A DNA stretch of 64,000 bases from a virus (lineage: Duplodnaviria; Caudoviricetes). A model generated the notes under the pieces. It saw nothing but the letters and a program-made list of their open reading frames with translations. It did not search any database and was not told the origin of the DNA. This document shows, piece after piece, positions 22,342 to 56,087 of the stretch (position 1 is the first letter of the stretch; each line of letters opens with the position of its first letter). Made by a program: the position numbers and the translations under genes. The stretch covers positions 21,025 to 85,024 of IMG/VR virus record IMGVR_UViG_3300037249_000287; one strand, 5' to 3'.

Positions 22342-22485
22342 ATATGACCGCTTTAAAAGCCTAATGAGCGATTTACTCGTTGCGGTCATTCAACTTTCAA
22401 TCGCCCATCTTGGCAAAAATTGTTATAACATTATCTTTTATCCTTTGCGTCTTAAATGACCGTCAACGCATCGAATGGATTTTCT
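22342..22485 (-). ncRNA. Kissing-loop leader (class B) of the GIY-YIG gene
   Basis: Promoter TATCTTTG 22490-22497. 5' hairpin TGCGT/ACGCA with loop CGGTCATT; 3' hairpin GTTG-AATGACCG-CAAC inside GGGCGATT/AATCGCTC with a GAAA/GAGTA internal loop. Confidence 0.7.
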
Positions 22486-22539
22486 TTTGCAAAGATACTA
22501 CTTATATACCGTAGTTCCAAATATTTTAGTGTTATTTAA

Positions 22540-23310
22540 TTAAAACAATGTTAATTGCCGTTTTTCTCTTGCTATTCTATCGCAAGCAACCTTATGGTAA
22601 TCTTCATTGAGTTCTATTCCGATAAAATCCCGCTTTTCGCGTATGGCCGCAACACAGGTACTGCCAGAGCCGCACGTATTATCAAGCACCAAATCGCCTT
22701 TGTTTGTATATGTACGTATAAGGTATCTAAGCAAATCGACGGGCTTTTGTGTGACATGATACTTGTCTTTGTCGCGCTTAAAATAAAGCAGATTTGTCGG
22801 GTATCGTGTGCCGTCGTTGTTTGTTGTGCATCGTTTAACAGTAGAGCGCAAAACAGACGTTGGCGTTCTTTCTCCTCTGTCTCTTATGTATGGCTCAAAT
22901 CCTTCTCGCATCTGTGGATTGTATGTCATGTGACAATCTTTTGTTGTCGGCGACGTAGAACCGAATCCAAAGACGCAAACATCTTCTGTTGTCTTTATCG
23001 GCTGATAATGCGAGTTCAGAAAGTTAGTACCGTTTTCCTTTACCCATACCCAGTTGTATTTATACATTTCAAGATTGCTTGAAATAAGCTTTGTGGTGAA
23101 CGGCTGTTGTGCAAACAGTACAATTGCACCATCTGGCTTTATTATGCGCTTGTAGGCGTTCCAAAGCGGCTCAAACGGAATCATGCAGTCCCATTTACAG
23201 GGTGTTGTGTTGTACGGCAAGTCGCAAAGTATCAAATCAACGCTTTTGTCGTCTATACCCTGCATTACGTCAAGACAGTCACCATTGTAGATTTTGTTAA
23301 GTTCTAACAT
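22540..23310 (-). CDS. DNA methyltransferase, N6-A/N4-C beta class (orphan)
   Basis: IYNGDCL...ILCDLPY (motif IV) precedes HVTQKP and VLDNTCGSGST (motif I). Confidence 0.9.
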   Translation of the reverse strand: MLELNKIYNGDCLDVMQGIDDKSVDLILCDLPYNTTPCKWDCMIPFEPLWNAYKRIIKPDGAIVLFAQQPFTTKLISSNLEMYKYNWVWVKENGTNFLNSHYQPIKTTEDVCVFGFGSTSPTTKDCHMTYNPQMREGFEPYIRDRGERTPTSVLRSTVKRCTTNNDGTRYPTNLLYFKRDKDKYHVTQKPVDLLRYLIRTYTNKGDLVLDNTCGSGSTCVAAIREKRDFIGIELNEDYHKVACDRIAREKRQLTLF

Positions 23311-23323
23311 AATTAAAATAAAG

Positions 23324-23851
23324 TTAGTTGTTGTTATTGCTGACAAAGATAAAGTTATATCCATGAATAGATTTTCGCTCTCCTCTTGCAACCCTCGCCA
23401 CCGTATTATGTGTTATGCCAAGAACTTCTTCTGCTTCACGGCAAGATTTATACACAATACCATTCTGTAAACATAAGACTCTTTTGTATTTGTATTCTTT
23501 GTTTTCCCTATTATAATATTGGGTATTTCTATCTGCCCAACGTAGATTGTCAATGCTATTATTAGTGCGATTATTTCTGTCTATATGGTCTGGTGAATAG
23601 CCATCCAAATCTCCTTCTGGCATAAATGTTTGCAAAACAATTTCGTGCAGTTTAAAGCGATGGCATTTAAGTGAAAGCGTTATCGTTCCTACGGAATCTG
23701 GTTTGTATTTCGCTATTACGCCTTTTCTTTTGAAACGGCCAAGGTTTGAGACTTGATACAACCCTTTTGGGAATACATACTCTTTTACTTTTTCCCATCT
23801 ACTGTTTCGAGAATGTAATTTTAAAACATCTTTCCAAATTTCCTGTTCCAT
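23324..23851 (-). CDS. NUMOD4-HNH-NUMOD1 homing endonuclease
   Basis: EIWKDV...LYQVSNLGR; DHIDRNNRTNNSIDNLRW; C-terminal YKSCREA...VARG...GYNF. Confidence 0.85.
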   Translation of the reverse strand: MEQEIWKDVLKLHSRNSRWEKVKEYVFPKGLYQVSNLGRFKRKGVIAKYKPDSVGTITLSLKCHRFKLHEIVLQTFMPEGDLDGYSPDHIDRNNRTNNSIDNLRWADRNTQYYNRENKEYKYKRVLCLQNGIVYKSCREAEEVLGITHNTVARVARGERKSIHGYNFIFVSNNNN

Positions 23852-23970
23852 GTGTTAATAAAAACATTGCAATCGCAACTACTAAGGTGCTCTACTACCT
23901 GTTCGTTGCGACTGCAAGTATATTGTTGTTCGTATTTGCGGCTAATGTAGAGCGCACCGCATTGAACTAT
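23852..23970 (-). ncRNA. Kissing-loop leader (class B) of the HNH gene at 23851
   Basis: Promoter TACCTTTG 23975-23982. TGCGG/CCGCA loop GCTCTAC kisses AGGT-AGTAGAGC-ACCT; GAAC/TAGTA internal loop; 12-bp outer stem. Confidence 0.7.
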
Positions 23971-24021
23971 AATGCAAAGGTACGAAAAATTACCGAATCA
24001 GCAAAATGTTTTAATTGTTTT

Positions 24022-24666
24022 TTAGAAAAGATTTAATTGCTTTACAATTTCTCCATTACTCATTTGCGTCTCTCCAAAGCATTCTGCCGCAAAACGTTTT
24101 TCTTGTGCGTCAAAATAATCTTTGTCAATCTCACAGCCGTAGAAATCAAAGCCTAGTTTGTAAGCTGCTATGCGGCTACTTCCAGAACCTATCATCGGGT
24201 CAAATATCATCTCTCCTTCTTTGACGTAGTTTTTGAATATCCAAGCGTATAACGCTACACTTTTTTGTGTCGGATGAATCTTCTTTTCTCCGTTAGAAGA
24301 AACGTGCTGCCTAAACATCTTTGCTGGACTATCGAAACTCGACCACGCATATTCGCACATGGCAAGCGAGAAATCAAACGGCTGCATTTTGTCCCATATA
24401 AGGAAATGTTTGTTTGGTGGTAGTCCGAAATAGTTACCGCCCCATATAATCTGATTCTTAGACACACGAAATAATTCGTCAAAGAACTCTTTGTTTGGAA
24501 CTTGACAATCCCAACTTTTTCTTTCGTGTGCCTGTCTGACTGGATTGCTTGATATACTTATTCCATAAGGAGGGTCGGCGCAAGCCAAATCGAAATATTT
24601 ATCTGGCAATGTACGCATGTATTCCACGCAATCGCAGTTATAAACATCACTTCTTGTTTCTTTCAT
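24022..24666 (-). CDS. Second DNA methyltransferase, N6-A/N4-C beta class (orphan)
   Basis: VYNCDC...LACADPPY...IHPTQK...IFDPMIGSGSS. Confidence 0.9.
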   Translation of the reverse strand: MKETRSDVYNCDCVEYMRTLPDKYFDLACADPPYGISISSNPVRQAHERKSWDCQVPNKEFFDELFRVSKNQIIWGGNYFGLPPNKHFLIWDKMQPFDFSLAMCEYAWSSFDSPAKMFRQHVSSNGEKKIHPTQKSVALYAWIFKNYVKEGEMIFDPMIGSGSSRIAAYKLGFDFYGCEIDKDYFDAQEKRFAAECFGETQMSNGEIVKQLNLF

Positions 24667-24994
24667 TTTCGTTCTTTTTGTTTTTGTAAATCAACGCACT
24701 AACCTTGGAATAGATGCCGACGTGACGCAGTTTCTTTATCTTGTCAAACACACCAGCGCTTTCCGTCTTGCGGTAACTTTCGCCAAGCAATTTGGGAATG
24801 TCGTTCCTTGCAATGCGTTCATCATCGACACACCTTGAAAGCATTTCAACCTCCTTTTGTGTCGCCTCGCATTCATTTCTCTTATTGGCACGAATAATGG
24901 AATCCACGTCAATGCCGTGCTTCTTAGCCATGTACCGCAACCGCGATAGATAGTCGCGGCACAAGGCTTGAAGAGTTTCGTTTCGCTTGGTCAT
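24647..24994 (-). CDS. Hypothetical protein
   Basis: 115 aa, operon-packed. Confidence 0.55.
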   Translation of the reverse strand: MTKRNETLQALCRDYLSRLRYMAKKHGIDVDSIIRANKRNECEATQKEVEMLSRCVDDERIARNDIPKLLGESYRKTESAGVFDKIKKLRHVGIYSKVSALIYKNKKNENERNKK

Positions 24995-25167
24995 TACTCA
25001 GGCTTAACGAACTGTGCGCATGCCTCAATGACGGCAGTGCCAATAACGACAATTGCACCATTGATGGCGGTTGCGTACTCTGGCGACGTGTATGTCACCA
25101 CGGCTACTGCGATGGCCTGTACACCACCGACGATTGCACTCACTAACTGAAAAGTCTTTTTGCTCAT
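24994..25167 (-). CDS. Small two-TM membrane protein (57 aa, below the track cutoff)
   Basis: MSKKTFQLVSAIVGGVQAIAVAVVTYTSPEYATAINGAIVVIGTAVIEACAQFVKPE; TAATG stop/start overlap with the next gene. Confidence 0.65.
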   Translation of the reverse strand: MSKKTFQLVSAIVGGVQAIAVAVVTYTSPEYATAINGAIVVIGTAVIEACAQFVKPE

Positions 25168-25206
25168 AATCTAAAATTTTAAGTTGTTAATAAAACGTGA
25201 GTTGTC

Positions 25207-25821
25207 TCACTTTTGTATTTTATCTAAATATTTCCAAACAAAACCACCAGAATGTTTCATTTCCCCAGAGCAACATCTTCTAATACTTCTTGGATATACA
25301 CCTGTTGCTTTTCCTGCCGCAACGGAATGTTCGTAAATACCAAGCAAATTGCCATTGTCGTCTAAGCACATCACGTTTTTAATATATCCTTTGCTAATTT
25401 TCTTTATCAAACCTTTCCTATATGAATTGTTTTTTGCAACAGTGGCTTTGGTTCGCTCTTTTATAGTTCCGTAATTATGATTGTAAAAGCCGTCACACCA
25501 TTCAAGATTGTCAACACGGTTGTTTGACGGATTTTCATCTTTGTGATTTATTTGTGGCAAATTATTCGGATTAGGAATGAAAGCTATTGCTACAAGTCTA
25601 TGGACGCTTTTTACAAAAGTTTTTCCGTTTTTCCTTAGTGTAACATGCTTTTCACCTCTACCAGTCATTGATGGCTGTGGTTTTAAAATTCTTTCTTTTA
25701 GAACATGTGTGTAACCACCCCTTCCCTTACGGATTTTTGGTAGACTTTTTATTCTTCCAAAACTACTTGCTTCATACAAACCTTCAAAACCTACTACTGG
25801 TTTCCAAATTTCTTGTTCCAT
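25207..25821 (-). CDS. NUMOD4-HNH-NUMOD1 homing endonuclease
   Basis: MEQEIWKPVVGFEGLYEASSFGRIKS; VHRLVAIAFIPNPNNLPQINHKDENPSNNRVDNLEWC. Confidence 0.9.
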   Translation of the reverse strand: MEQEIWKPVVGFEGLYEASSFGRIKSLPKIRKGRGGYTHVLKERILKPQPSMTGRGEKHVTLRKNGKTFVKSVHRLVAIAFIPNPNNLPQINHKDENPSNNRVDNLEWCDGFYNHNYGTIKERTKATVAKNNSYRKGLIKKISKGYIKNVMCLDDNGNLLGIYEHSVAAGKATGVYPRSIRRCCSGEMKHSGGFVWKYLDKIQK

Positions 25822-25924
25822 AAAATCAAAACTCCCAAGTGTTCGGTGTATGGGTCGAGCATACACCTACTTACAAGGGAATTAAGTGTTTCGCGTTAGG
25901 ATTCTCGACCAATCCTTTATTTAC
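25822..25924 (-). ncRNA. Kissing-loop leader (class B) of the HNH gene at 25821
   Basis: Promoter TATCTTTG 25929-25936. AGGATT-GGTCGAG-AATCCT and GGTGTATG-CTCGACC-CATACACC have perfectly complementary 7-nt loops; AAGTA/GAAC internal loop. Confidence 0.75.
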
Positions 25925-25973
25925 GATGCAAAGATACAAAAACTTTTTGTAATATCCAAATTTTTAACTTACT

Positions 25974-26327
25974 TTAAAAAGGTAAGTTTGAATCGTCTGT
26001 ACCTTGCGCACTTTCTTGGTTTTGAAGTGGCTGTTGCTGCTTGTTGTTTTGCTGTTGACCACCAATAGCGGTCACTTTCCAAGCCTGCAAATTGACAAAA
26101 TATTTACCTTGCCATTCAGCACCTTTGATGTCAAATTGAACCGACACATCTTGCCCAACAACAACACCCATAGCTTTCCACTTATCCTCACCAAAGACCT
26201 CAAATTTGATTTTCTGAGGGTATTGCTCTTTTGTCTCTAAGATGAAGAAATTCTTCACCACCTCACCATTCTTGCCATTGAAACGCTGCTCTGGCAGAAT
26301 CTGAATAACTGTACCATTTAAATCCAT
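25974..26327 (-). CDS. DUF3127 family OB-fold (SSB-like) protein
   Basis: MDLNGTVIQILPEQ...EQYPQKIKFEVFG...FDIKGAEWQGKYFVNLQAWKV; tail ending DDSNLPF. Confidence 0.8.
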   Translation of the reverse strand: MDLNGTVIQILPEQRFNGKNGEVVKNFFILETKEQYPQKIKFEVFGEDKWKAMGVVVGQDVSVQFDIKGAEWQGKYFVNLQAWKVTAIGGQQQNNKQQQPLQNQESAQGTDDSNLPF

Positions 26328-26386
26328 GACTATATAATTAAATTTTTAAAACGGAATCCACTTAAAACTCACAAAAGGCCACTTTC

Positions 26387-26701
26387 CTAATCACTGCTGT
26401 CTACACTGTAGGACATACCTAACTCGGTGCATATACTATGGTGGTCTGTACGACGATAGCCACTACTATAGCCCTTGTCAAAACGAAAGCCCTGCTCATG
26501 GAAAGCTTTCAAAATCGCACTCTCCATCTCGCCGTACATCCAACCATGACCATCATCATGGAATATCGGCGTCCAGCCATTAGCATAACCCAAATCACCA
26601 ATAGGCGCAATCTTACGCAAATCACTAAGACCAAACAAACCAATCTTCCTGACTAACTCCTTCTTCCATTCTGGAACTTGTGAATAATTTCTGTACTTCA
26701 T
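26387..26701 (-). CDS. Hypothetical protein
   Basis: 104 aa ORF with phage-like codon use. Confidence 0.55.
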   Translation of the reverse strand: MKYRNYSQVPEWKKELVRKIGLFGLSDLRKIAPIGDLGYANGWTPIFHDDGHGWMYGEMESAILKAFHEQGFRFDKGYSSGYRRTDHHSICTELGMSYSVDSSD

Positions 26702-26819
26702 AATCCTTATTGTTTATCGTTAAACGTTGTTTTTGCCACTTTTTAAGCCCGTAGAGCGCGTCTTACCACCAAGGCGGTATAAGTTACCACAAAGAACTTT
26801 TAACGCGCTTAGAACGGCT

Positions 26820-27404
26820 TTATTTCTTTTCATTGAACTTCTCCATATTCTTACCCCAATTAGGGTCACTTTTCATCTTGCGCATGATAGAACCAGCCTT
26901 CGACAACATCATCTCATACATATTGTCACACTTCTCACCCCACACAAGGTCTTTCATGTAACCACCGTGCTGCTGCATGTAGCGCAACTTCTCCTTCGCC
27001 ATCGACATCACCTGACGTATATCATTGAACATCTCCATATACGTGTTCTTGTCATAACGATGCAAAATGTCATCCATGTCAATGACAGAAGACTCAATGA
27101 TGTCAGCACACATGAAACATACAAGTAAATGACGCATCAAATTTTCTTTGTCCGACAAAGATATATTCATCGTTGCTATCTCGACTTTTTCCACTTCATT
27201 ACGCGCATTTTCCAAATACTCATACACAACACGGTTGAACAATACATCAATCTGCTGCGCCAAAGCTAAAGCTACATCGTATTTGCCAGTACGCATCATC
27301 ATCTGCTGCTGAACACGCAACTCACGAATACGAGGCTCAACCTCAAAAGACTGGCGTATCTTTGACATCAGCTCCTGCGGAATATCACTAACTTTGTTCA
27401 TCAT
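26820..27404 (-). CDS. Hypothetical protein (Met-rich, helical)
   Basis: 194 aa downstream of the promoter at 27446-27453. Confidence 0.6.
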   Translation of the reverse strand: MMNKVSDIPQELMSKIRQSFEVEPRIRELRVQQQMMMRTGKYDVALALAQQIDVLFNRVVYEYLENARNEVEKVEIATMNISLSDKENLMRHLLVCFMCADIIESSVIDMDDILHRYDKNTYMEMFNDIRQVMSMAKEKLRYMQQHGGYMKDLVWGEKCDNMYEMMLSKAGSIMRKMKSDPNWGKNMEKFNEKK

Positions 27405-27445
27405 AATAACTTAATAAATTCTTTTGTTTTACGTTAAACTTAGTG

Positions 27446-27453
27446 CAAAGATA
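27446..27453 (-). promoter_or_regulatory. -7 promoter (TATCTTTG)
   Basis: TAnnTTTG-CAC. Confidence 0.6.
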
Positions 27454-27669
27454 TATATATTTAAAGCATAAACAATAAAACATTAACATAACATAAGATT
27501 TTTAACTTTTAATAAGTAAACTATTTTATATATGGTAACTTATTAAATAAGTATATTTATTATACACACACGCGCACGCACGCGAGATTCGGCAAATATT
27601 AAGCAAATCCTTTGCCCGATTTCCGCTTAATATACACAAAAACGGCAAAATAAAACGGTTTAATCATGC

Positions 27670-28035
27670 TTATATTCTTATCTTTCCAAACTTAACGTAT
27701 TGCCCGTAGTAAGCATCGAAACTGTTGCCTTTAACCCACGCAAGTTTCTTGCAGAACTGCATCACCTCATTATGTGGAGTGTCGCGAAAGTCGTAAACTA
27801 CTCCGTCCGAATCGGCAGACACACAACACGTAGTCGGAATCTCAACCTCCTCATTCTCCTTGCGCAGATAGTCAACTATCTTTGCCATTGTGTCAAACGA
27901 AATGTCAACATCAAAACAACTGTCAACACGATAATTGACAGAATCATCATAAATGGTAACATCACCATCGCAACTTTCTTTTTCTACGAGCGACTTGACG
28001 TAGGCTTCCTGCTCTTTTGTCTTTACCTGTAACAT
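27670..28035 (-). CDS. Hypothetical protein (first gene of the leftward arm)
   Basis: Start moved to ATG 28035 because promoter TATCTTTG (28064-28071) lies inside the track's extension. Confidence 0.55.
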   Translation of the reverse strand: MLQVKTKEQEAYVKSLVEKESCDGDVTIYDDSVNYRVDSCFDVDISFDTMAKIVDYLRKENEEVEIPTTCCVSADSDGVVYDFRDTPHNEVMQFCKKLAWVKGNSFDAYYGQYVKFGKIRI

Positions 28036-28074
28036 AATCCTTTTGTTTAAGTGAAACTTTCCGCAAAGATACAC

Positions 28075-29220
28075 ATTTAAGCACCTAACTAAGCATTTTC
28101 TTGGGAATTTTTAACTTAAAAAAGAAAAAAACGCATTTTAAGCCGTTCTAAGCCGTTTTCTTTTGCCCTGCGGTAACTTATAAGGGAAACACCATAAAAA
28201 GCGTTCTACAGGGCTGAAAATGCCCTTAAAACGAATCCTATAACATCATACACTACCACACAAAACACAAAAACACCGATTTCTGGCAAATCTACACAAT
28301 ATTACACACAGCACAATGACAACATTTACAGCTGACGCATTTCACCTCTACAATCCCTTCGCGATTTTCTTCCTTGACGCAAATTTTATTTTTTTTCGTT
28401 TTTAATTTTCTTCTTTAAAAATTTTTTTTCTTTTCGATTTTTTGATTTTTAAAAACAACATTGTTTTGACCATATAGATTTTGCTGGTTCTAACCCCTCC
28501 CACCCCTATATCGTTTTTGTGTCTCCGCCAGTTACTTTGCACCCCTTTTTATTTCCTACCTTTGCATGCTGAAAAATAGAATTAGAAAACGTTCATTTAC
28601 TAAAAATAGCTATATTTGGGCAGTTATTTTCAGATGCTGAAAAACAGAAATAAGATAATATATTAATACGTAAACTAATTTAAATAAGTATATTTTTCTT
28701 TTGCCAAATATTAATTATAACTATCTTTGCAGTATATTATCATATTATCATATTAAAACAATAAACTAAACTAAACTAACAAATAACAATACAATAATAT
28801 TAAAATAACAATACTAAACTTATAACTTATAACTTAAAATAAACTTATAATAATAATTTTCTTATATAATATGTATATAATATATATATTGTAAATAATT
28901 AGTCAATTTAGAAAATATATACTTAATGATATAGTAAAAAATAATTATATAAAATAAGATATTTTGTGGAATATGTTTTCTTATTTATTTACACTAAATT
29001 AATATAACTTATTTATTTTCAGTAATTTATATATTTGTCGGTTGTAAATAATAAATTACAATATTTTCGTATTATTTTTATCAAAAAGTATTTTATTATT
29101 ACATTTCTTTATTGTCTTAACATATTTTTAATACGATTTTAACACTAAAAATACTGATTTTCAGATAGTTACGTATTAATTGTTAAAAACATATTATTTC
29201 TTGCAAATATCAAAATATCG
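28075..29220. other. ORF-free, strand-skewed and extremely AT-rich control region between the divergent arms
   Basis: No ORF of 60 aa or more; C/A-rich tract 28240-28350; T-rich tract 28380-28450; ACCCCTCCCACCCCT near 28492; near-pure A/T at about 28660-29160. Confidence 0.7.
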
Positions 29221-29223
29221 TCG

Positions 29224-29231
29224 TACCTTTG
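29224..29231 (+). promoter_or_regulatory. -7 promoter (TACCTTTG) starting the rightward arm
   Basis: TAnnTTTG-CAAC at the end of the AT-rich block. Confidence 0.65.
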
Positions 29232-29235
29232 CAAC

Positions 29236-30240
29236 ATCAAAACGGAGGACAGCCGTTTAAAAAATGTTCAACGAGGACGAGGGAAAATCAAGGTATTCAT
29301 TTACTGCGAATAATCACCTTCCGACTACATTATAGCAATCATTATAGCTATTTTGTTGTATGTTCTTTAAAACACTGATAACAAGCTATTTTGCCCAAGG
29401 GTGAAAAGGTAGTGAGGAGACCGTATTTTAGAAATGATATGTATATCAAAAGTTATTAACGGAAAATCTATTTTTTAGGGAGTATAAACGAAATAACCTG
29501 CGGCCACAAAATAGGACTGTTATCAATTTACCATACAGGAGAAAAGGTGCAGCAGTTAGTACTATTCGAAGTGTACCGAAAAGACTGTTAACTGAATAAT
29601 GCTAAAAGATATATGTGTAACAAATCTTTGCAACCGAAAACGGATAAAAGAGGGAAAAATAGAAATATCAACTTTAAACTTTTCCGCTAATTCGGCAGGA
29701 GCGCAGACCAAGGGAGAAAGATAGTAACTACATTTGCAAGTGACTGAAAAGGTAGCCTCGAGCAGGTTACATATTATAGAATAATAGTATATGATACTTT
29801 TTAGGTAGCGAGGACACGGACAAGGTATAATGATATATTACCTAAACATGTAGACGGGAGGCCGAAGACTTCCTGCATGTAATAATCTAATTTTAGATTA
29901 TTTGGTGATAAAAATTTAAATAAGGAATAAAGCAGTACTTTATTTTCGTTTATTCAATACCTTTTGCACTTGGTTGCAAAGATAGGTATTTTATTGAAAA
30001 TGTTTTAGCCGAGGTGCAGGAAGGCTGAAACATAATAAAAAGGTAGGACTTGGCGCTGACAACAATAAAAACGAAATATAGATTTTTGATATTACGACAC
30101 TTATTTTTGTGTTAACAGATACTGAAAAGGTGCAGAAAAGTACACTAATTATTTAGCGTGCAGCCTTGGTGATTTTCGCGACTTTTGCCCAAGGTACAAT
30201 TTATTTATAATTCATTTTAGTATTAATTAAAAAACAAAAA
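29236..30240 (+). ncRNA. Candidate ~1-kb non-coding RNA or very long leader
   Basis: Promoter, then 1 kb with no sizeable ORF, many hairpins and repeated GAAAAGGT motifs. Confidence 0.4.
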
Positions 30241-30256
30241 TTAGGAGGTCACAATT

Positions 30257-38539: not shown

Positions 38540-38583
38540 CCAAAAAATTTGGTTTTTACAAAAAGTTTTTGTATCTTTGCATC

Positions 38584-38694
38584 GTAAATATGACGCTTAA
38601 CTCCTACTAAGCATCAACAAACTTAACAATGGTAACGAGTAAATCTGCGGAGGTAGGAGACCGCATTTTGAAAGTTACCTTTTGTTTTATACTT
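38584..38694 (+). ncRNA. Kissing-loop leader (class B) of the HNH gene at 38695
   Basis: Promoter TATCTTTG 38572-38579. GCTTA/TAAGC loop CTCCTAC (38601-07) kisses GTAGGAG (38653-59) in TGCGG/CCGCA; GAGTA/GAAA internal loop; GGTAAC/GTTACC outer stem. Confidence 0.75.
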
Positions 38695-39513
38695 ATGGAA
38701 GAGATATGGAAAGATGTAGTTGGTTACGAAGGTTTGTATCAAGTAAGCAACTTCGGAAATGTGAAAAGCGTAAAAAGGGTTATTAAGAGAGCCAAAAATA
38801 CACATTTAAGTGTAAAAGAACGATTATTGAAAATACATCAAAACCACAAGGGGTACAAAATGGTTTGTTTGTCAAAGCAAGGCAAACAAAAATTTTGCAC
38901 TATCCATCGCCTTGTTGCAAAAGCGTTTATTCCAAACCCTCAAAATTTACCTCAAGTTAATCACAAAGACGAAGATAAGATGAATAATCATGTAGACAAC
39001 TTGGAGTGGTGTACAAATAAATATAATATAAACTACAATAATGGTGCTGCATTTAAAAGAGGTGTTAAAACAAAAAAGGAAAGATATAACTGGAAGGATG
39101 TTTGCGAAAGAATGATTGAGACTAAAACAAAAAACAATGTTTACACAAAACCAATTCCAGTTAATCAATTTACATGGGATGGTGTCTTTATAAAAAGATT
39201 CCGTTCTTCAGAACAAGTAAGTCGGGAGCTTGGAATAAATGGCACACACAGAGTAGCACAAGGCTTAAATAGGCACGCTGGTGGATATATCTGGTTGTTT
39301 GACGAAGATATTGACAAAATAAAAGACAGAGTGCTGAATAAAAAACCCGAAAAAAGAATAGTTCAATATGACAATAATGGTAATTTTATAAAAACGTGGG
39401 AAAATCAAAAAGAAGCGTCCAAATATTTAGGATTAACTACTTCGTCATTATGTGCTTGCTTGCGTGGGCGCACAAAAACATGCGGTGGTTATATTTGGAA
39501 GTATTATGAATAA
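38695..39513 (+). CDS. NUMOD4-HNH endonuclease with two NUMOD1-like C-terminal repeats
   Basis: MEEIWKDVVGYEGLYQVSNFGNVKS; IHRLVAKAFIPNPQNLPQVNHKDEDKMNNHVDNLEWC. Confidence 0.9.
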   Translation: MEEIWKDVVGYEGLYQVSNFGNVKSVKRVIKRAKNTHLSVKERLLKIHQNHKGYKMVCLSKQGKQKFCTIHRLVAKAFIPNPQNLPQVNHKDEDKMNNHVDNLEWCTNKYNINYNNGAAFKRGVKTKKERYNWKDVCERMIETKTKNNVYTKPIPVNQFTWDGVFIKRFRSSEQVSRELGINGTHRVAQGLNRHAGGYIWLFDEDIDKIKDRVLNKKPEKRIVQYDNNGNFIKTWENQKEASKYLGLTTSSLCACLRGRTKTCGGYIWKYYE

Positions 39514-41640: not shown

Positions 41641-41756
41641 ACGTTCACTCTCAACACCGCCCGCCGCTGGCTTGCATTTTGGTAAATAAAAGTTAAATAT
41701 CTTAATTTATGTTTCCAAAACTTGCAATATTAAAACATACTTTGTATCTTTGCACC

Positions 41757-41919
41757 AAGTAATCGAGGTGGCTCTCGGATTATAGAGTGTTCTTAGCGCA
41801 TTTTGAGAAAAATGATATATCCTATTTGTTAGGAAGAATTAGACCCTGTAACCCCGAGCCACAGTCCTTGCTAAAAAGGACAGGTTACGGGGTTAATTCT
41901 TTTATAGCAGATAGGATTT
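41757..41919 (+). ncRNA. Kissing-loop/pseudoknot leader (class B variant)
   Basis: Promoter TATCTTTG 41745-41752. TAATCGAG/CTCGGATTA loop GTGGCTC pairs with GAGCCAC (41856-62) bulged from an 11-bp stem; further stems AAGAATTA/TAATTCTT and GTCCTT/AAGGAC. Confidence 0.65.
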
Positions 41920-42765
41920 GTGACAAAGACGATTAACATACCAATCAGCCTCATCAGGGGTTACAAGAGAGACAAAAACTCCCTTGAAATGCTGGCGTGT
42001 GCAATTATCATCAAAAGTCATTATCAAAATTCGTGCCTCTACGACCTTAAAATCACATCGGTAATGGAATTGTTCGGTGTGTCATATAAAAAGGCTCACA
42101 AGGTCTTGGAATCGCTTAGAACGCATGAATTATTCATCTATAACCCAAAGAAAGATTGTATCTTTGCAAAGTCTTTCAAATCTACGGAAACGAAATACTA
42201 CGGAAAGAGACAAAGATATGCTGCCAAGGCTGACTATTGCAGGAAACTGCAAGTTACCGATGGCATGACATTACGCGAGTTGGTTCGTGAATTACGAAAC
42301 ACCTTACTTTTATGCGCTATCAACGCAAGCGAACAGGACGGCTTTATAGTTAGTGTAAACAAATCTATTCCAGCCACGAAACCGAACGTACAACGTGCGA
42401 TACCACAACGCAAATTGGCAATGTCTTTTGGAATGAGCAAATCATCCGCAAGTAGGTATATCAATAAGATGGTTGATGACAAGAAAGTAAGCAAGACACA
42501 GATTGTAGCCGAATGTGTTATCACTGACCTTAATGAAAATACCGAAAGCGATTACCGTAAGATACAAACGAAGATACCACACTACAAGGTTTGGCACAAC
42601 GTCAAGTCTGGTGGTTGGTCTGCGTGGATTGTTTATGGTCGCGTTTACTCTATTATGGATAGGACAATAAGCGAAAGTTTTATGAATGTTATCTTCAACT
42701 ATCGCTATCCAAATGTTTTCGAGGCACAAACAAGTAGTGAACTTGATGGCAAATGGAAATATTGA
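41920..42765 (+). CDS. Basic putative DNA-binding protein
   Basis: 281 aa, Lys-rich, HTH-like segments (QRKLAMSFGMSKSSASRYINKM); GTG start. Confidence 0.55.
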   Translation: MTKTINIPISLIRGYKRDKNSLEMLACAIIIKSHYQNSCLYDLKITSVMELFGVSYKKAHKVLESLRTHELFIYNPKKDCIFAKSFKSTETKYYGKRQRYAAKADYCRKLQVTDGMTLRELVRELRNTLLLCAINASEQDGFIVSVNKSIPATKPNVQRAIPQRKLAMSFGMSKSSASRYINKMVDDKKVSKTQIVAECVITDLNENTESDYRKIQTKIPHYKVWHNVKSGGWSAWIVYGRVYSIMDRTISESFMNVIFNYRYPNVFEAQTSSELDGKWKY

Positions 42766-48861: not shown

Positions 48862-48876
48862 ATAAAACAAATAATT

Positions 48877-49860
48877 ATGGAGAACTACAAAGAAGACGTT
48901 ATCGCAACCAGAACAGGCAACGTAGGGTCAAGCGACTCCAAGATGTTGCAGCAAATTGCGGAACTTGGTCAAGTACCAACATCTGCAAAGAAACGACTTG
49001 CAATAGTCAAGGGATTTTGTGAGAACCCAAACATTACAACACCAGCAATGCGACTTGGTGACTACGTAGAACAAATGACGTTTGAAAGCCTACATAGCCA
49101 AGATGCACGATGGGAAAGCAACAAGTTCTTAAAGAGCGAAAAGTATTCACGAAAGAATTGTGGGTGCATCACACATATTGACTATTGGCTGCAAGATGAT
49201 GACAAGAAAGTTATCACCATTGGAGAACAAAAAGCAACGGTACGTAACTACCAGCAAGCTTACGATGAATATAAATTCCAAATCTATCATCATTATCTTT
49301 TGACAAAAGAATACGCCGACAAGATTGGTTATAAGGTAAACGTACTGTTCTGTGTGTATGACACAAACAGTATTGAGGACGGGCACGAATACGACCCATC
49401 ACGGCTTACGGTTAAGCAGTTAAGAATGCTTGAAAGGTTTTCTAAATACTACCATCTTTCGGATGCAATGGATATTGTAGACACGTTCCTTGAAAACTTC
49501 ACAGAGTTTTATGAAGACGAGGTAGATGGAAATCTGTTGCCTGAAAAAGTTAAAACTGAGTTTGACCAAGTAACCACATTCCTTGCAGAAATCAAGGAAA
49601 GAGAAAAGAAAGTCGAGGACTTTAAAAAGAAACTTACCGAATTTATGGTTTCTAAGGGCATCAAGGGCATAAAAACCGATGCGTGGGCAATTACACTGGT
49701 TAATGAATCCGAAAGCGTTAGCGTGGATTATAAGGCTATTTTCGCAAACGAAATAGAGGCTAAGAAACCACGTATCGCCAACAAGCTAAAAAAACAATAT
49801 AAGAAAGTTACCAAGAAGAAAGCTTACGTGATGATTAAAACAAAAGATAATAACGATTAA
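48877..49860 (+). CDS. Lambda-exonuclease/YqaJ-like exonuclease
   Basis: RTGNVGSSD...AMRLGDYVE...THIDY...GEQKA...QIYHH; partner of RecT. Confidence 0.7.
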   Translation: MENYKEDVIATRTGNVGSSDSKMLQQIAELGQVPTSAKKRLAIVKGFCENPNITTPAMRLGDYVEQMTFESLHSQDARWESNKFLKSEKYSRKNCGCITHIDYWLQDDDKKVITIGEQKATVRNYQQAYDEYKFQIYHHYLLTKEYADKIGYKVNVLFCVYDTNSIEDGHEYDPSRLTVKQLRMLERFSKYYHLSDAMDIVDTFLENFTEFYEDEVDGNLLPEKVKTEFDQVTTFLAEIKEREKKVEDFKKKLTEFMVSKGIKGIKTDAWAITLVNESESVSVDYKAIFANEIEAKKPRIANKLKKQYKKVTKKKAYVMIKTKDNND

Positions 49861-49871
49861 ACTTAAAGATT

Positions 49872-50672
49872 ATGGCAAACAACAATGTAGTAGCCCTTCG
49901 CGGGTATTTTAACAACGACACTTGCATGACCAATCTTCGTGCAATGTTAGGGCAAAAAGCACAGGGTTTTGTAACAAGCGTCCTGTCTGTAGTGAACAAT
50001 AACAAACTGCTGCAAAATGCAGAGCCAGCAACAGTGTATTCAAGCGCAATGGTGGCAGCATCTTTGGATTTGCCAATTCAGCCCAACCTTGGATTTGCTG
50101 CAATCGTTCCTTATGGTCGTCAGGCACAGTTCCAGATTATGACAAAAGGTCTGTTGCAACTCGCAATTCGTAGCGGCCAGTACGAGCGTGTTACCAACGC
50201 TGTTGTTCACAAAGGCGAATTGGTTAAATACGACCCTTTCAAAGACGAGTACGAGTTTGACGCATCCAAGCGCGAAAGTGACGAGGTTATTGGTTTCATG
50301 GCATACTTCCGTACCGTTGGCGGTTATGAAAAGTATTTCTACATGACAAAAGAAGAAGCACTTGCACACGGAAAGAAATACAGTAAGTCGTTTAACAACG
50401 GAGTATGGACTTCTGACCCAGACGCAATGTGCCTCAAGACTGTTTTAAAACTTTTGCTTTCAAAGTATGGAATCCTCTCTGTGGAGATGCAGCGTGCTAT
50501 CAAGTTCGACCAAGGTGTTGTTAAAGGCGACTTTTCTCAAATGGAAAGCGTTGAAGATATTGATGCAGTAGAAGTTGACTATGTTGACAATCCACAAAAT
50601 AGTGTTGATGAAAAGAAGGCCGCTAAAACAGCTGCGAAATTTGCTGATTTTGACAACACAGATAAAAAGTAA
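49872..50672 (+). CDS. recT: RecT-family single-strand annealing recombinase
   Basis: AASLDLPIQPNLGFAAIVPYG...QFQIMTKGLLQLAIRSGQY...DAMCLKTVLK. Confidence 0.9.
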   Translation: MANNNVVALRGYFNNDTCMTNLRAMLGQKAQGFVTSVLSVVNNNKLLQNAEPATVYSSAMVAASLDLPIQPNLGFAAIVPYGRQAQFQIMTKGLLQLAIRSGQYERVTNAVVHKGELVKYDPFKDEYEFDASKRESDEVIGFMAYFRTVGGYEKYFYMTKEEALAHGKKYSKSFNNGVWTSDPDAMCLKTVLKLLLSKYGILSVEMQRAIKFDQGVVKGDFSQMESVEDIDAVEVDYVDNPQNSVDEKKAAKTAAKFADFDNTDKK

Positions 50673-50678
50673 AGAACA

Positions 50679-51551
50679 ATGTCAAACATAGATATATTAC
50701 ATTCACACAGTGGTCTTGAACGAATACTGAACATTCCGAAGCATATAGTTCTTGTAGATGAAGAGTTTCGCGACAGATTCAACCATGATACGATTGAGGC
50801 TTTTAAATATAACGGCGTGGCTTATTATAAAGTCCCGACAATATCTTTTGTTAACAATGGTGGCATATTTAAAAACTTTGAAAGATGAGTGCATTTATTG
50901 ATAGTATAAAAAGTAAAAGAATAAAGATACACAATGATGAAGTTCGCAAACAAGCAAACAACTTGTTCCAAATAACTGAAAACAACGGTCGGTTATGGAT
51001 TACGTTTGATAACATACCATGCTTTCCGTGCGAGATGCTAAAGAAAGAACCCCTTGAAGCACTTGCTGAAATAAGGGAGTTATACGTTAAAAGAATGTCT
51101 TAACGCAAACTATAAGGGTGTGGCATCACACCATGCCCTTATCATATTTTAAAGTTATGAATAAAATTGAAACGTATTGCGAAGGTGTAGAATGTAGCAT
51201 CAGAAACCAGTGCCTACGATATACACATAGAATGCTTTTTAAAGACAAAGCCCACTTTAGGAAATGCAGGAATCAAAGAGCATATATGCAAGACGAAAAT
51301 AATGTTATTAAAAAATAGACGAAATGGCGGGGAATACAAATTGGGTGTTTAATCGAAGAATCGTAACCGACAGAGACAGCGATGCTCTTGAAGCAGCGAA
51401 ACGAATCGAACAAGAAAAAATTACAAACGGTTACAGATGGATAAAAATAAATGAAAAAAACAAGATACTTGTTCCTTGCAACGAGGATGGCAGTCCAACA
51501 AAAGAAGGCTTGAAAATAATGTCTTGTTTTAAAAAACACGTTGAAGCATAA
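50679..51551 (+). other. Small hypothetical genes (50679-50888, 50885-51103, about 51157-51318, 51324-51551)
   Basis: Packed ORFs. Confidence 0.5.
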
Positions 51552-51597
51552 TAAATAAAATATTGTTAATTATTTGGAATATTACAAATATTATTTA

Positions 51598-51605
51598 TAT
51601 CTTTG
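51598..51605 (+). promoter_or_regulatory. -7 promoter (TATCTTTG)
   Basis: TAnnTTTG-CAA upstream of 51630. Confidence 0.6.
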
Positions 51606-51629
51606 CAAAAAAAATAAAAAGAAACAAAT

Positions 51630-52166
51630 ATGATAGAGTTTGAAAAAGAAGTAATCGCGTACTTGAATCTTCCGTCAATGCCCAAGAAAGAATGGAATCA
51701 AACAGACTCCTTTCGATGTGGTGTTGCAGTTATAAACCTTTCACTTGGCCGACAGGCTTATGCCGTGTGTTCTTTCGACAAGGAAACAGACAAAGAACCA
51801 AGAATTACCAAGGTATTCGGCGTTGAGCCTTTTGGAAGTATAGACAAAGTGTTTGTCGTTCCAGCGTACATGGACAACGACACAACAGACGTAGACCTTG
51901 ACGGCGAGTCGAAAAAGCGTGCAGAGCAGCTTGCAGAAGAGGCAAAGGAACTTGAAAATCAAGGGACAGTAGATGAAGCAATCGAAGATGCTAACAAACT
52001 ACCAGAATGGATTTTTCCCGAAATCAACAACATCGAAGAGGCGCAGGCATACCTGCGTGAATACAATCGTATCAACCGAATCAAGAAAGGCAAGATTCCA
52101 ACAAACGAAGAGACAATTAAAATGCGCTTGTACAACATCTATATGAGCAACAAGAATCGCAAATAA
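51630..52166 (+). CDS. Hypothetical protein
   Basis: 178 aa. Confidence 0.65.
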   Translation: MIEFEKEVIAYLNLPSMPKKEWNQTDSFRCGVAVINLSLGRQAYAVCSFDKETDKEPRITKVFGVEPFGSIDKVFVVPAYMDNDTTDVDLDGESKKRAEQLAEEAKELENQGTVDEAIEDANKLPEWIFPEINNIEEAQAYLREYNRINRIKKGKIPTNEETIKMRLYNIYMSNKNRK

Positions 52167-52318
52167 AGTATGGACTGGGAACTTCACAAACTAAGGGCAT
52201 GGGCTGCTGTATTAAATGACGTTCTAAAAGAATATCCAACAGCAACAATATCATGCGCGGTCAAACAAATAGAATCACGAATAAATCACATCGAATCAAC
52301 AAACAACGAATAAAGTTT

Positions 52319-52987
52319 ATGGAACAAAAGAAAAAACTCACAAACGCACAATTACAAAAGCGTATTGAAAATGCCATTGTGTTTGTGCCAAAGACAAAAG
52401 ACACAATCAGTATCTTTTTCAGCGACAAGGGTGTCAGGCTTGTTGCTGATAGTGATGGGTGTGTTATTGAAACGAACTATCACCGCCACGTCTTTTCAAA
52501 CATAACCTCATCTGGAGTGTCAAGACCCTATCTTTACACAAAACGCATTATCGAAATTGCAAACGATAATCTTGAGGCAATCAAGACGGAAAGCGGGTAT
52601 TCTTACCAGCGTTTGATTGATGTTCTGAAAGAAAAGGAAGATAAGTCGGAATACAACATCGTTGTGTACTACGAATGGTGGCTGATGGTAATCTTTGATG
52701 GTCTTTACAGTATATCCGAGGACGAAGTTAGTTCTTGGCTTGTGTACTTCAAGTACATAAACATTCTTGCCACAAACAGCATCATACTTGAAGAGCACAA
52801 GGAAGATGTTACTAACAAACAATTTGTAGAACAGTTCATTTCTCGCATCAAGGAATTTACAGACAATTTGGAAGAGCGCGTACTGTTCCACAAAAAGACA
52901 GATGAACAGGTTATACAGGAAGAGATTGCCGCTATTCAAGAACAGGAACAGAATGATGCGATGGAGGCGCAAACGGATGCAAATTAA
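52319..52987 (+). CDS. Hypothetical protein
   Basis: Acidic C-terminus; start moved to ATG 52319. Confidence 0.6.
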   Translation: MEQKKKLTNAQLQKRIENAIVFVPKTKDTISIFFSDKGVRLVADSDGCVIETNYHRHVFSNITSSGVSRPYLYTKRIIEIANDNLEAIKTESGYSYQRLIDVLKEKEDKSEYNIVVYYEWWLMVIFDGLYSISEDEVSSWLVYFKYINILATNSIILEEHKEDVTNKQFVEQFISRIKEFTDNLEERVLFHKKTDEQVIQEEIAAIQEQEQNDAMEAQTDAN

Positions 52988-53471
52988 GATTAAACTAAAT
53001 GGTGGCATTATGCCGACCAAAGGTTCTGAGTTTGCTGCCGCATACGACTTATACACACCAGATGACATCGAACTAAAATACGGGAGGCAGGTTATAGACC
53101 TGAAGTTCTCTATCGAACTACCTCACGGTTGTGCAGCAATTATTCAACCAAGAAGCGGCTTTACATGCAAAGGTATGCCAGTTCATTCAATGATTCGCCA
53201 TTGGTGGTTTATGCTATTTGGTGTTTTCAGCAAGGGAAGACGTGTTAATGCGGATGTTGTCGTTGGGTTGGTTGACGAAGATTATAGAGATAATGTAGGG
53301 GCTTTGGTTAAGTCCAATCATCTTCCTATATTCAGAAAAGCAATTATTACAAAAGGTACTCGCATTGCACAAATGAGAATTGTACAAGTTCCAGACACAG
53401 AAATAATGGAAGTTGAAGAACTTGATATGACCAAAAATCGTGGAGGTGGATATGGCTCAAGTGGGAAGTAA
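52977..53471 (+). CDS. dut: Trimeric dUTPase with an insertion
   Basis: AAAYDL, IQPRSG, GLVDEDYR, RIAQM and RGGGYGSSG motifs. Confidence 0.9.
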   Translation: MQIKIKLNGGIMPTKGSEFAAAYDLYTPDDIELKYGRQVIDLKFSIELPHGCAAIIQPRSGFTCKGMPVHSMIRHWWFMLFGVFSKGRRVNADVVVGLVDEDYRDNVGALVKSNHLPIFRKAIITKGTRIAQMRIVQVPDTEIMEVEELDMTKNRGGGYGSSGK

Positions 53472-53637
53472 TATAAATAAAAGCAATTACGACTGGGTTA
53501 GCGTCAGCGAGTATGCAAAAATGCTTGGAAAGTCAAAGCAGACCGTCTATAACATGGTCAAGGCAAACAAACTTGAATCCAAGCAATTTAAGCGCGGCTC
53601 AATGATTGGATTGCTTATTAAATGCGAAAGGATATGA
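53440..53637 (+). CDS. Small MerR/excisionase-type HTH protein
   Basis: WVSVSEYAKMLGKSKQTVYNMVKANKL. Confidence 0.65.
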   Translation: MEVDMAQVGSNINKSNYDWVSVSEYAKMLGKSKQTVYNMVKANKLESKQFKRGSMIGLLIKCERI

Positions 53638-54035
53638 ACAAGGCACATAAAGAACTCTTGAAAAAGAACTACGAGAATGCTTGCAACTCGTACCTAAAGG
53701 CACTTACAGATGCTTGGGAATGGGATGTTGACTCATACGGATTCTGGATTGCTGATTGCGTTGGCGAAACATTCTCCTATGGCGACAATATGTTTATTGA
53801 TATGCAGGACATAATTTTTTGCGTTGAAAATGATGTCAAAGAAGATGAATACGAGGAATGGCAAGAATACTGTCTGTTTGCCCACGAATACAACCAGAAT
53901 ATACCGAATTTCAAAGCTTGGCATAAAGGTTGTCCAAGACTGTCGAAAGAAGAACAGAAACATCTTGTAAGTTTGAAAGAAACGTTCGACAAAGCTATTA
54001 AGGATTACATTGACAATACAACTATAAATTATTAA
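53622..54035 (+). CDS. Hypothetical protein
   Basis: 137 aa, acidic/aromatic. Confidence 0.6.
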   Translation: MRKDMNKAHKELLKKNYENACNSYLKALTDAWEWDVDSYGFWIADCVGETFSYGDNMFIDMQDIIFCVENDVKEDEYEEWQEYCLFAHEYNQNIPNFKAWHKGCPRLSKEEQKHLVSLKETFDKAIKDYIDNTTINY

Positions 54036-54040
54036 TTGCT

Positions 54041-54328
54041 ATGGTATCAAGAACTGCAAAATATTATCATACGCATCCAGCCGCACGAAAGAAGAAGGCT
54101 GAGTATGACAAGAAATTTAACGAGAAAAAAGAACAGCGCGAAAAGCGCGTTGAGTTAGTTCAGCATAACCGCGAGCACGACAAGAAATACGGCAAGGCAT
54201 CACGCGCAGGCAAGGATGCAAGCCACACGAAGAACGGAATAGTCTACAAGAAGTCTTCAGTAAACCGTGGCTCAAAGTCTGATACCGCAGGTGACCGCAG
54301 AGCACGCGGAAGTAAAAAGAAGAAATAA
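54041..54328 (+). CDS. Very basic small protein, possibly a degenerate His-Me finger
   Basis: GKDASHTKNG...SSVNRG; Lys/Arg-rich. Confidence 0.5.
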   Translation: MVSRTAKYYHTHPAARKKKAEYDKKFNEKKEQREKRVELVQHNREHDKKYGKASRAGKDASHTKNGIVYKKSSVNRGSKSDTAGDRRARGSKKKK

Positions 54329-54487
54329 TAATCTTACTTAGGTTTCATTATTCAATAATGTTTTTGATTAATACTTTGCTAACTGAAAACTTGTGAAAGG
54401 TAGTAGGTTTCATTTTTCCTTGTTAGTAATTAAATTTTTATGACTAACTTTTAGCCAAGGCGTTGTGAAATGTAGTAGGCTATTTTA

Positions 54488-54598
54488 GGAGGGTTGGCTG
54501 AGTGGTCGAAAGCAAACGGTGGATTATTATGCGTCTCAAATTTTTTCAATAATTCATCGTGGTGCACAACATCGTAGGTTCGAATCCTACACCCTCCG
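54488..54598 (+). tRNA. tRNA-Ser-like RNA with the anticodon arm replaced by a 13-bp hairpin and 19-nt loop
   Basis: Acceptor GGAGGGT/ACCCTCC plus G73; D-arm GCT-GAGTGGTCGAA-AGC; variable arm GGTG/CATC; T-arm GTAGG-TTCGAAT-CCTAC; no canonical anticodon loop; 3' end CAA. Confidence 0.75.
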
Positions 54599-54722
54599 CA
54601 ACACGGCGGTAGACGTACCGCAAGTCACTTGCAAGGCTTTGTCATTTGCATACTGGCGACAAGCCCACGAGTATCTACACGGACTGCGTGGGCACTTTAA
54701 AAAGATTAAAAGTATTAAGCGT

Positions 54723-54893
54723 ATGAGAACATTTATCATTGCAGTTTTACCAGTGCTTGCCTTGTTGGTTGGAGTGCTCTGGTTGGTATATGGCAGTTTT
54801 TTGATTGGATTGTTGTGCGTATTTGCGGCTTCTTTTATTGCTACTCTCATATTTCTGTGGGTAACTTTTGTTGTAAACCATTTTAATAATTGA
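54723..54893 (+). CDS. Small two-TM membrane protein
   Basis: 56 aa hydrophobic; the track ORF's N-terminal extension runs through the tRNA and is spurious. Confidence 0.55.
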   Translation: MRTFIIAVLPVLALLVGVLWLVYGSFLIGLLCVFAASFIATLIFLWVTFVVNHFNN

Positions 54894-55084
54894 TGATTTA
54901 TGGCACAACAAACAAAGAAAAGAAAGCGAAAGGTTAGGCGCAAAGTGCGGATTACACAGAAAGCCCGCATACAGAAAAAGGATAGCGTACAGAACGATAC
55001 CCTTAGACGTGATACGTTGCCAAGAATGAAAGCGCAAATGCCACGTTCTAATGGAATAGTATTCAAAGTAAAGGTTAAACGCAA

Positions 55085-55489
55085 GTGATAACAACTTTTC
55101 GAAGGTTACTTATACAACTTGGCAAGACATTGCCATTCGTATTGTGTGTAGCAATCTTGGTTTTGTACATTGAAACAGTGTTTAATTTGGCTACAAGCCA
55201 CTTTCTATACCTCGATGGTGTAGTTATACCCAACACACCCATTTCGTTTGTTGTGGGGCAAATTTTTGAATACGATTTATTAGTGTGTTGTATAATGCTT
55301 ACAATGAGTATTGCAATAGAGGCTTGCAAGTGGAATCTATGGACTACGTTTTACGTCTTTGCGCATATTGCCGAAAAATACTACTTTGACTTTGAACTTG
55401 AACCGACAACAATATATATCATCTGCATTGCTAACATTATCATTGCAGGGTATCTAACGTACAAAGGAATTAGAATATTATTAAAATGA
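55085..55489 (+). CDS. Multi-pass membrane protein
   Basis: 134 aa with about 4 hydrophobic segments. Confidence 0.6.
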   Translation: MITTFRRLLIQLGKTLPFVLCVAILVLYIETVFNLATSHFLYLDGVVIPNTPISFVVGQIFEYDLLVCCIMLTMSIAIEACKWNLWTTFYVFAHIAEKYYFDFELEPTTIYIICIANIIIAGYLTYKGIRILLK

Positions 55490-55905
55490 AAGTAGAAATA
55501 AAAAGCGGTTTTACACTGTGGATTTCATTCATAGACGTAAAACGTAAAGAACAAATTGCATTAGCAATATACAACAAAGAAAAACAGTGCTATGTAGGGC
55601 GCGTAAAAAAGCAAGTACAAGACTTGTTTGAAAACCAAGTTGACGAGTTTACTTACAAAAAAGACGCAAAAGAATGGGATATTGCCAGAGACTTAAAACA
55701 AAGAATTGAAAAACTATACGGCAAGGTTACATATATAGACAACACCTTTCGATGGCCGATGTCTAAAAACAAAATTGATGAATGGGAATTGCAATACCAA
55801 AGAAGCGTACAAAGCAACAAGAAACATTGGGAAGAAGAACGCGCAAAATTGGAATTTGCAAGAAAATTCATAAACCCTATAACTGGAAAACAACCAAAAA
55901 AGTAA
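55486..55905 (+). CDS. Hypothetical protein
   Basis: 139 aa. Confidence 0.55.
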   Translation: MKVEIKSGFTLWISFIDVKRKEQIALAIYNKEKQCYVGRVKKQVQDLFENQVDEFTYKKDAKEWDIARDLKQRIEKLYGKVTYIDNTFRWPMSKNKIDEWELQYQRSVQSNKKHWEEERAKLEFARKFINPITGKQPKK

Positions 55906-55967
55906 CTATTTTCTTAAAAAGTGCAAAATAATTTGGAATATATAAAAAGTATATGTACCTTTGCAAC

Positions 55968-56087
55968 GTAATCATTAGGGAAGAAGTGATTGCAGACATA
56001 TTGAAACAAAGGTACAAGTTCATATAAACGACACCAAAGTCCCTGCATACCCGCTCTTCCCTTTAAGGTTGCAGGGATTCGTCGTTT
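55968..56087 (+). ncRNA. Kissing-loop RNA (class B variant) with no gene directly downstream
   Basis: Promoter TACCTTTG 55956-55963. GTAATCATT-AGGGAAGA-AGTGATTGC kisses TCTTCCCT (56055-62) in the TCCCTGCA/TGCAGGGA stem; outer stem AAACGAC/GTCGTTT. Confidence 0.65.

Follow-up and report, generated by a model that had tools for sequence, protein, structure and literature searches.

The expression of mobE, a free-standing HNH homing endonuclease gene of phage T4, is limited by an intrinsic terminator, a plain 9-bp hairpin situated within the coding region of a gene that has no promoter of its own (PMC2790892). Here we describe six copies of a leader RNA, heading mainly endonuclease genes, in the last 64 kb (positions 21,025 to 85,024; hereafter the window) of an 85,024-bp IMG/VR virus record, IMGVR_UViG_3300037249_000287, which has direct terminal repeats and is rated complete. 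As with mobE, whose terminator is kept wherever the nuclease gene is present (PMC2790892), a free-standing HNH gene has a hairpin and U-tract at its 5′ end, which would keep nuclease expression low; here, however, the cassette has its own promoter, and the hairpin lies in the leader, carries a putative S-turn and pairs through its loop with the loop of an upstream hairpin. T-even phages also possess hairpins that sequester the start sites of I-TevI, I-TevII, I-TevIII and segB (reviewed in PMC2988022), and one version of the leader, that of copy 1, can likewise mask a translation start. It would do so by a loop-to-start-site pseudoknot opposed by an upstream decoy copy, rather than by a local hairpin (PMC2988022); moreover, no embedded late promoter is evident in the phage leaders, and the host type is one without Shine-Dalgarno pairing. 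We put it at about an even chance that these leaders are an uncatalogued family of cis-acting 5′-leader RNAs which dose downstream expression, by attenuation or by start-site masking.

In the c4 antisense RNA of phages P1 and P7 a central element is complementary to both an upstream and a downstream site, the outcome being termination or start-site blockage. RNA I and RNA II of ColE1, an antisense pair transcribed from opposite strands, meet through seven-nucleotide (nt) loops that pair along their whole length. The 7-nt loops of the leader also pair over their full length, but the pairing is intramolecular, within the product of one strand, via an A-rich linker. The copy-1 type shares with the seqA/seqC arrangement of the P4 CI RNA (PMC4825925) a central element complementary to an upstream and a downstream site, all three covarying from one related phage to another; the leader pairings are nevertheless much shorter (7–8 nt) than those of P4 CI or P1/P7 c4, show no similarity to Rfam families, and head cassette genes rather than an immunity region. 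Literature searches returned no description of a kissing-loop leader on homing endonucleases.

Promoters in this genome, which gave no megablast match to deposited phages, are of the Bacteroidota type, with TTTG at −33 and TAnnTTTG at −7. A TAnnTTTG box precedes every one of the six copies (that of copy 5 was read directly, at 41745–41752) and is followed by a short 5′ hairpin (H1), an A-rich linker of ~25–55 nt and a long bipartite 3′ hairpin (H2), the loop of H1 (L1) pairing with the loop of H2 (L2) over 7 or 8 bases. H1 and the long H2 were recovered by RNAfold in 6/6 copies (z-scores −2.1 to −3.6). The two loops belong to a single transcript, 45–80 nt apart, and the leader occupies its extreme 5′ end, adjoining an unstructured, U/A-rich start region. 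An initial annotation of the window, which for minus-strand copies quoted the low plus-strand number, had described six promoters each followed by this order of elements, and box inspection and RNAfold bear this out; the six complementary loop pairs that it listed are present in 6/6 copies, exactly where it had placed them, and its distance of ~15–25 nt between stem end and start codon is true for copies 1–5.

Compensatory change among relatives indicates that this fold is selected, as the initial annotation had proposed. Because MAFFT misaligned the hairpins when given all six copies or mixed relatives, a covariance model was seeded on two sequences of the same geometry. Seeded only on the foreign sequences L048 and L179, the model found copy 3 and, weakly, copy 4; once rebuilt, it recovered members that had not been in the seed, at E = 1e-8 to 1e-15, from L349, L356, L185 (three further copies) and L186. 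Across 13 distinct aligned sequences, 93.8% of cells were paired and both sides changed in 22/29 pairs. The kissing helix, which stood outside the model, was 100% paired in the same sequences, with 4/7 pairs covarying, and the 7-nt loops of copy 3 and 12 relatives were complementary over their full length. Loops had also been described as unrelated between copies, which does not hold for the main subfamily: here L1 reads G NNNN AG and L2 reads CU NNNN C, the first and last two pairs are constant, and variation is confined to a central 4-nt code. Copies within one genome have different codes, and these codes turn up again in other phages, a pattern explained equally well by divergence with compensatory drift and by the avoidance of cross-talk that had been put forward. 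On the 67-kb viral contig L185 there are four type-I leaders with four distinct central codes, which precede HNH genes and two genes starting with a different N-terminal motif. A comparison with Rfam 15, also proposed initially, gave no family match (cmscan was run on the entire window with gathering scores and with E ≤ 5, and on 21800–26200 with E ≤ 10); apart from two tRNA matches, hits in the window were at chance level.

The second conserved element is an AGUA/GAA internal loop in H2, present in copies 1–4, as had been reported for the four nuclease-linked copies, and missing in copies 5 and 6. Its letters, R-AGUA opposite GAA-M, are invariant in 13/13 aligned type-I relatives, and in that alignment invariant letters are limited to this motif and the loop ends. 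AGUA stands on the 5′ strand, 8–9 bp below the loop, in copies 3 and 4 and the 13 relatives, and on the 3′ strand, 3–4 bp below the loop, in copies 1 and 2 and their relatives. Most type-II relatives retain AGUA/GAA, G001 and G007 carrying CAAA on the GAA side, and members without the motif are L161, L173, L169, L037, copy 5 and copy 6. Since the motif persists in both strand orientations amid covarying stems, selection appears to act on the motif itself. Judged by its sequence alone, the internal loop is of the sarcin-ricin/loop E (S-turn) type, with AGUA opposite GAA flanked by helices; it differs from sarcin-ricin/loop E in occurring in either strand orientation, ~4 or ~8–9 bp from the loop. 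S-turn motifs often serve as contact sites, for proteins or for tertiary interactions.

The six copies and their genes are as follows, the output types being predicted.

22342–22497 (−), copy 1 leader, start-site-copy type: −7 box 22490–22497; H1 22447–22469 with L1 core 22455–22462; H2 22364–22409 with L2 22383–22390; S-turn GAA side 22395–22398, AGUA side 22374–22378; L1 repeat 22344–22351, directly 5′ of AUG 22339–22341.
21901–22341 (−), GIY-YIG-like open reading frame (ORF): 146 aa, weak match, between the copy 1 leader and ORF 21155–21898.
21155–21898, replication-organiser-like ORF, the next gene after the GIY-YIG-like ORF.
23852–23982 (−), copy 2 leader, terminator type: −7 box 23975–23982; H1 23938–23960 with L1 23947–23953; H2 23865–23918 with L2 23889–23895; S-turn GAA on the 5′ strand; U-run 23860–23864.
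23324–23851 (−), copy 2 cargo, HNH_3/NUMOD4 endonuclease gene.
25822–25936 (−), copy 3 leader, terminator type: −7 box 25929–25936; H1 25898–25916 with L1 25904–25910; H2 25833–25880 with L2 25853–25859; AGUA on the 5′ strand; U-rich run 25822–25831.
25207–25821 (−), copy 3 cargo, NUMOD4-HNH_3 endonuclease gene.
38572–38694 (+), copy 4 leader, terminator type: −7 box 38572–38579; H1 38595–38612 with L1 38601–38607; H2 38631–38679 with L2 38653–38659; AGUA on the 5′ strand; U-run 38680–38688.
38695–39513 (+), copy 4 cargo, NUMOD4-HNH_3-NUMOD1 endonuclease gene.
41745–41919 (+), copy 5, a looser variant: −7 box 41745–41752; H1 41761–41781 with L1 41768–41774; terminator-like two-tier hairpin 41834–41899 with the partner 41856–41862 in its 10-nt bulge; no S-turn.
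41920–42765 (+), copy 5 cargo, ORF with weak helix-turn-helix matches.
55956–56090 (+), copy 6, a variant with the look of a stand-alone small RNA: −7 box 55956–55963; H1 55970–55991 with L1 55977–55984; hairpin 56027–56084 with L2 56055–56062; U-run 56083–56090; no S-turn; no convincing ORF for ~370 nt downstream, up to the HNH gene 56469–56939.

Copies 3 and 4 have an identical promoter stretch of ~33 nt (25929–25961 (−) and 38547–38579 (+)), including the first 10 transcribed bases, beyond which leaders and genes have diverged; this could reflect promoter homogenisation or a common recombination handle.

Loop complementarity alone is not special, since a loose detector (4-bp stems, 7-nt complement) gave ~100 matches per strand. 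With energy cut-offs of H1 ≤ −4 and H2 ≤ −15 kcal/mol, a strict detector returned 5 matches in the 85-kb genome, four of them copies 1–4, on the sense strand and between promoter and start codon; the mean over 12 genome shuffles (block-wise, dinucleotide) was 0.67 strict matches. The fifth match (58899–59034) was set aside as chance, lying inside ORF 58849–59268. Besides this intra-ORF match, the 85-kb genome contains no strong kissing-hairpin candidate other than copies 1–4. In the comparison with shuffled sequence suggested in the initial annotation, strict kissing hairpins exceed the shuffles; bare loop complementarity is common. Copies 5 and 6 fail the strict detector, copy 5 having its 3′ partner in a bulge, not in a terminal loop, and an ambiguous 5′ hairpin, and copy 6 a loop closed by 3 bp only. 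As a negative control, a degenerate pattern for the copy 1 5′ hairpin retrieved 120 unrelated hairpins, 0/120 with a partner. Service of the loops as DNA guides, also raised initially, was set aside: 7-mers are too frequent to carry information, and the L1 heptamer of copy 3 occurs nine times in 85 kb and is absent from the empty site in G001.

The strict architecture was found in 8/105 distinct regions upstream of HNH homologues on other viral contigs, compared with 1/105 coding controls and ~1.2 per shuffle replicate. Only two plausible leaders were present among 79 regions of HNH relatives in bacterial genome assemblies, so the family appears to reside mainly on phage contigs. Nor is the leader universal for HNH genes, because other HNH genes of related large phages often have different leaders or none. 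A second kind of promoter-proximal leader lies at ~16056–16150 (+), 60650–60740 (+) and possibly 17017 (+), and also upstream of HNH genes in L001, L028 and L079. It forms a three-way junction that opens with a conserved GGATAG-like stretch; 7–9 nt of one loop are complementary to sequence just past the closing stem, and loop and partner differ between copies.

What follows H2 separates the leaders into two versions. Copies 2, 3, 4 and 6 have 4–6 U within 0–2 nt of the H2 stem, and 13/13 aligned relatives have a U-run within 1–5 nt after H2, which suggests that H2 and U-run together constitute an intrinsic terminator, lying 0–15 nt before the AUG. Copy 5 probably belongs with these four. The initial annotation had supposed, by analogy with T-even ribosome-binding-site hairpins, that the 3′ stem occludes the start region; for most copies the U-run after the stem points to a terminator instead. 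A terminator is also favoured over a ribosome landing pad, because the U-run of copy 6, L169 and L037 is either remote from any start codon or stands ahead of a Shine-Dalgarno box: L169 and L037 have sigma-70-type promoters and a U-run ahead of the start region, that of L169 being upstream of a Shine-Dalgarno box.

Copy 1, by comparison, has no U-run, and its L1 sequence is repeated 2 nt before the AUG, a repeat not present in copies 2–6. L2 of this type pairs with the 7 nt directly 5′ of the AUG as well as with L1. At the copy 1 locus of G001, G006, G007, G008, L458 and L460 the scaffold is kept with four different codes (the fourth in L460), and every code change affects L1, L2 and the pre-AUG repeat in concert. 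In an unfitted MAFFT alignment of 5 orthologues, L1–L2 was 100% paired and L2–pre-AUG 97% paired, 4/7 pairs covarying in each, and the two duplexes are isoenergetic (difference ≤0.6 kcal/mol). Because both pairings covary and are isoenergetic, the H2 loop of this type has two mutually exclusive partners. Pairing of L2 with the pre-AUG site would be predicted to mask the start site, so that the masking envisaged in the initial annotation survives for the copy-1 type, via a loop-to-start-site pseudoknot, and not for the other copies. No second TAnnTTTG box was found inside any leader.

Both versions belong to exchangeable cassettes. The cargo includes NUMOD4-HNH proteins, a phrog_2340 endonuclease, the GIY-YIG-like protein and replication-organiser proteins. 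Exactly three NUMOD4/HNH_3 genes and one weak GIY-YIG match occur in the genome, and 4/4 carry the leader; the earlier description of leaders mostly on endonuclease genes is sound in this respect, but passes over the replication-organiser genes. Portability, which had been suggested, is well seen at copy 3: the cassette (promoter, leader, HNH gene and its terminator; ~24995–25970) is missing in G001 between the gene for single-stranded DNA-binding protein and the next gene, and in G006 a near-identical leader precedes a different endonuclease. At the copy 1 and copy 5 sites the promoter is 94–95% identical in G001 while leader and cargo are different, the copy 5 site there holding a canonical kissing leader. 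The cargo at the copy 1 locus of relatives is a replication-organiser-like protein with a C-terminal domain 68% identical to ORF 21155–21898; in this phage the GIY-YIG-like ORF, for whose product no relatives were found in viral contigs, stands between the copy 1 leader and the replication-organiser-like gene. Homologous cargo stands behind a copy-1-type leader in G008 and behind copy-2-type leaders with a U-run in G011, L459 and L462, which implies that the two outputs are interchangeable; L459 and L462 show a compensatory code change relative to copy 2 and G011. Given these cargo swaps, the leader has no fixed association with nucleases or with any single protein, and the autoregulation by, or partnership with, a cognate nuclease that had been entertained is unlikely, as near-identical leaders precede unrelated proteins.

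From the presence of both versions ahead of homologous cargo in related phages we infer one common role, that of setting or limiting downstream expression. A Bacteroidota-type promoter at the head of a small, often exchanged phage cassette would transcribe the leader. In the terminator version only read-through transcripts would carry the gene; in the start-site-copy version the H2 loop would have two possible partners: pairing with H1 would keep the start site accessible, and pairing with the start region would mask it. The H1 loop would compete for the H2 loop from within the leader. Kissing might raise or lower expression. Several points weigh against this proposal. A simple terminator scan called no H2, although its rules exclude internal loops and loops >8 nt and make the result uninformative; the 3–5 nt between stem and U-run in several relatives weaken canonical termination; and a U-rich tract beside the AUG could aid ribosome binding in hosts without Shine-Dalgarno pairing. 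Copy 1 being without a U-run, one mechanism does not cover all copies. Finally, a plain terminator requires neither kissing loops nor an S-turn, leaving the most conserved features mechanistically unexplained, and for this reason a protein or tertiary partner is likely. This consideration leads to the main rival, not necessarily exclusive of a dosing leader, in which H1, kissing helix and H2 make up a rod that bears the S-turn at constant spacing; a phage or host protein (an antiterminator, a Rop-like binder of kissing complexes or an S-turn binder) would recognise this rod and time the expression of early cassettes, the RNA alone doing little. The invariance of the S-turn letters while flanking stems covary, and their retention on either strand (copies 1 and 2 versus copies 3 and 4), would suit a motif of a kind that often contacts proteins, and a plain terminator has no need of such features. 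We nevertheless hold such a platform to be doubtful, since members without the S-turn exist, and the protein encoded by the cargo is an unlikely binder where near-identical leaders precede unrelated proteins.

Other explanations appear less probable again. A compact 5′ structure could block 5′-end-dependent decay and shield the start region, making cassettes independent of context, and the leader is indeed always at the extreme 5′ end, beside the unstructured U/A-rich start region, and associated with cassettes that land in different places; a single hairpin would suffice for this purpose, however, and the covarying pre-AUG repeat of the copy-1 type and the gene-less copy 6 would be left unexplained, so that we consider a stabiliser or insulator improbable. 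Similarly small is the chance that the terminated or processed leader is a coded antisense RNA acting in trans, on other copies or on co-infecting phages with the same code. The three-site layout of the copy-1 type (upstream copy, central loop, start-site copy) mirrors seqA, CI and seqC of P4 (PMC4825925), copy 6 resembles a stand-alone small RNA, and codes that differ within one genome recur in other phages, but seven base pairs are little for action in trans, Rfam antisense and phage RNA families do not match, and neutral compensatory drift would also give code diversity. It is a long shot, too, that the leaders are address-coded switches, in which the 4-nt code common to L1 and L2 (and to the start site in one version) would set which leaders interact, terminated leaders acting in trans on co-infecting phages of the same code; if true, this would give mobile cassettes and replication genes a small-scale, RNA-based means of immunity or competition. 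Least probable by far is that the leader works as a riboswitch or cleaves itself as a ribozyme. Its elaborate tertiary fold, 5′ of a gene and beside a terminator-like hairpin, might recall either; yet there is no multi-helix junction or conserved pocket, invariant letters being confined to the S-turn and loop ends, and the Rfam models of ribozymes and riboswitches gave no match even with E relaxed to ≤ 5–10.

Further features were observed around the leaders. Two N6/N4 DNA methylase genes (22540–23391 and 24022–24666, both (−)) alternate with the nuclease cassettes; the entire block is missing in the relative G006, and G001 has unrelated sequence in its place. Between copy 6 and the HNH gene, 56100–56468 (+) contains a 14-nt direct repeat at ~56305 and ~56420. 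An Rfam tRNA match at 54488–54598 (+), scoring 42 bits and not called by ARAGORN, has good acceptor, D and T arms, with 42 nt in place of the anticodon arm region plus a long insert, and may be an intron-bearing or otherwise unusual tRNA. The interval ~28560–29200, downstream of two promoter-like sites, is extremely A+T-rich, repeat-laden and ORF-free, and could be an origin or another non-coding element.

The leaders provide a series of naturally matched kissing-loop codes, together with an invariant S-turn and two interchangeable outputs, a predicted terminator and a predicted start-site mask with its decoy; if the dosing model holds, the module would be usable as orthogonal RNA parts for Bacteroides engineering. 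For the phages themselves, a recurrent and structurally elaborate leader is found in uncultured viruses with Bacteroidota-type promoters, whose hosts have translation start signals that are poorly understood, and a common control module would link cassettes of homing endonucleases with those of replication genes.

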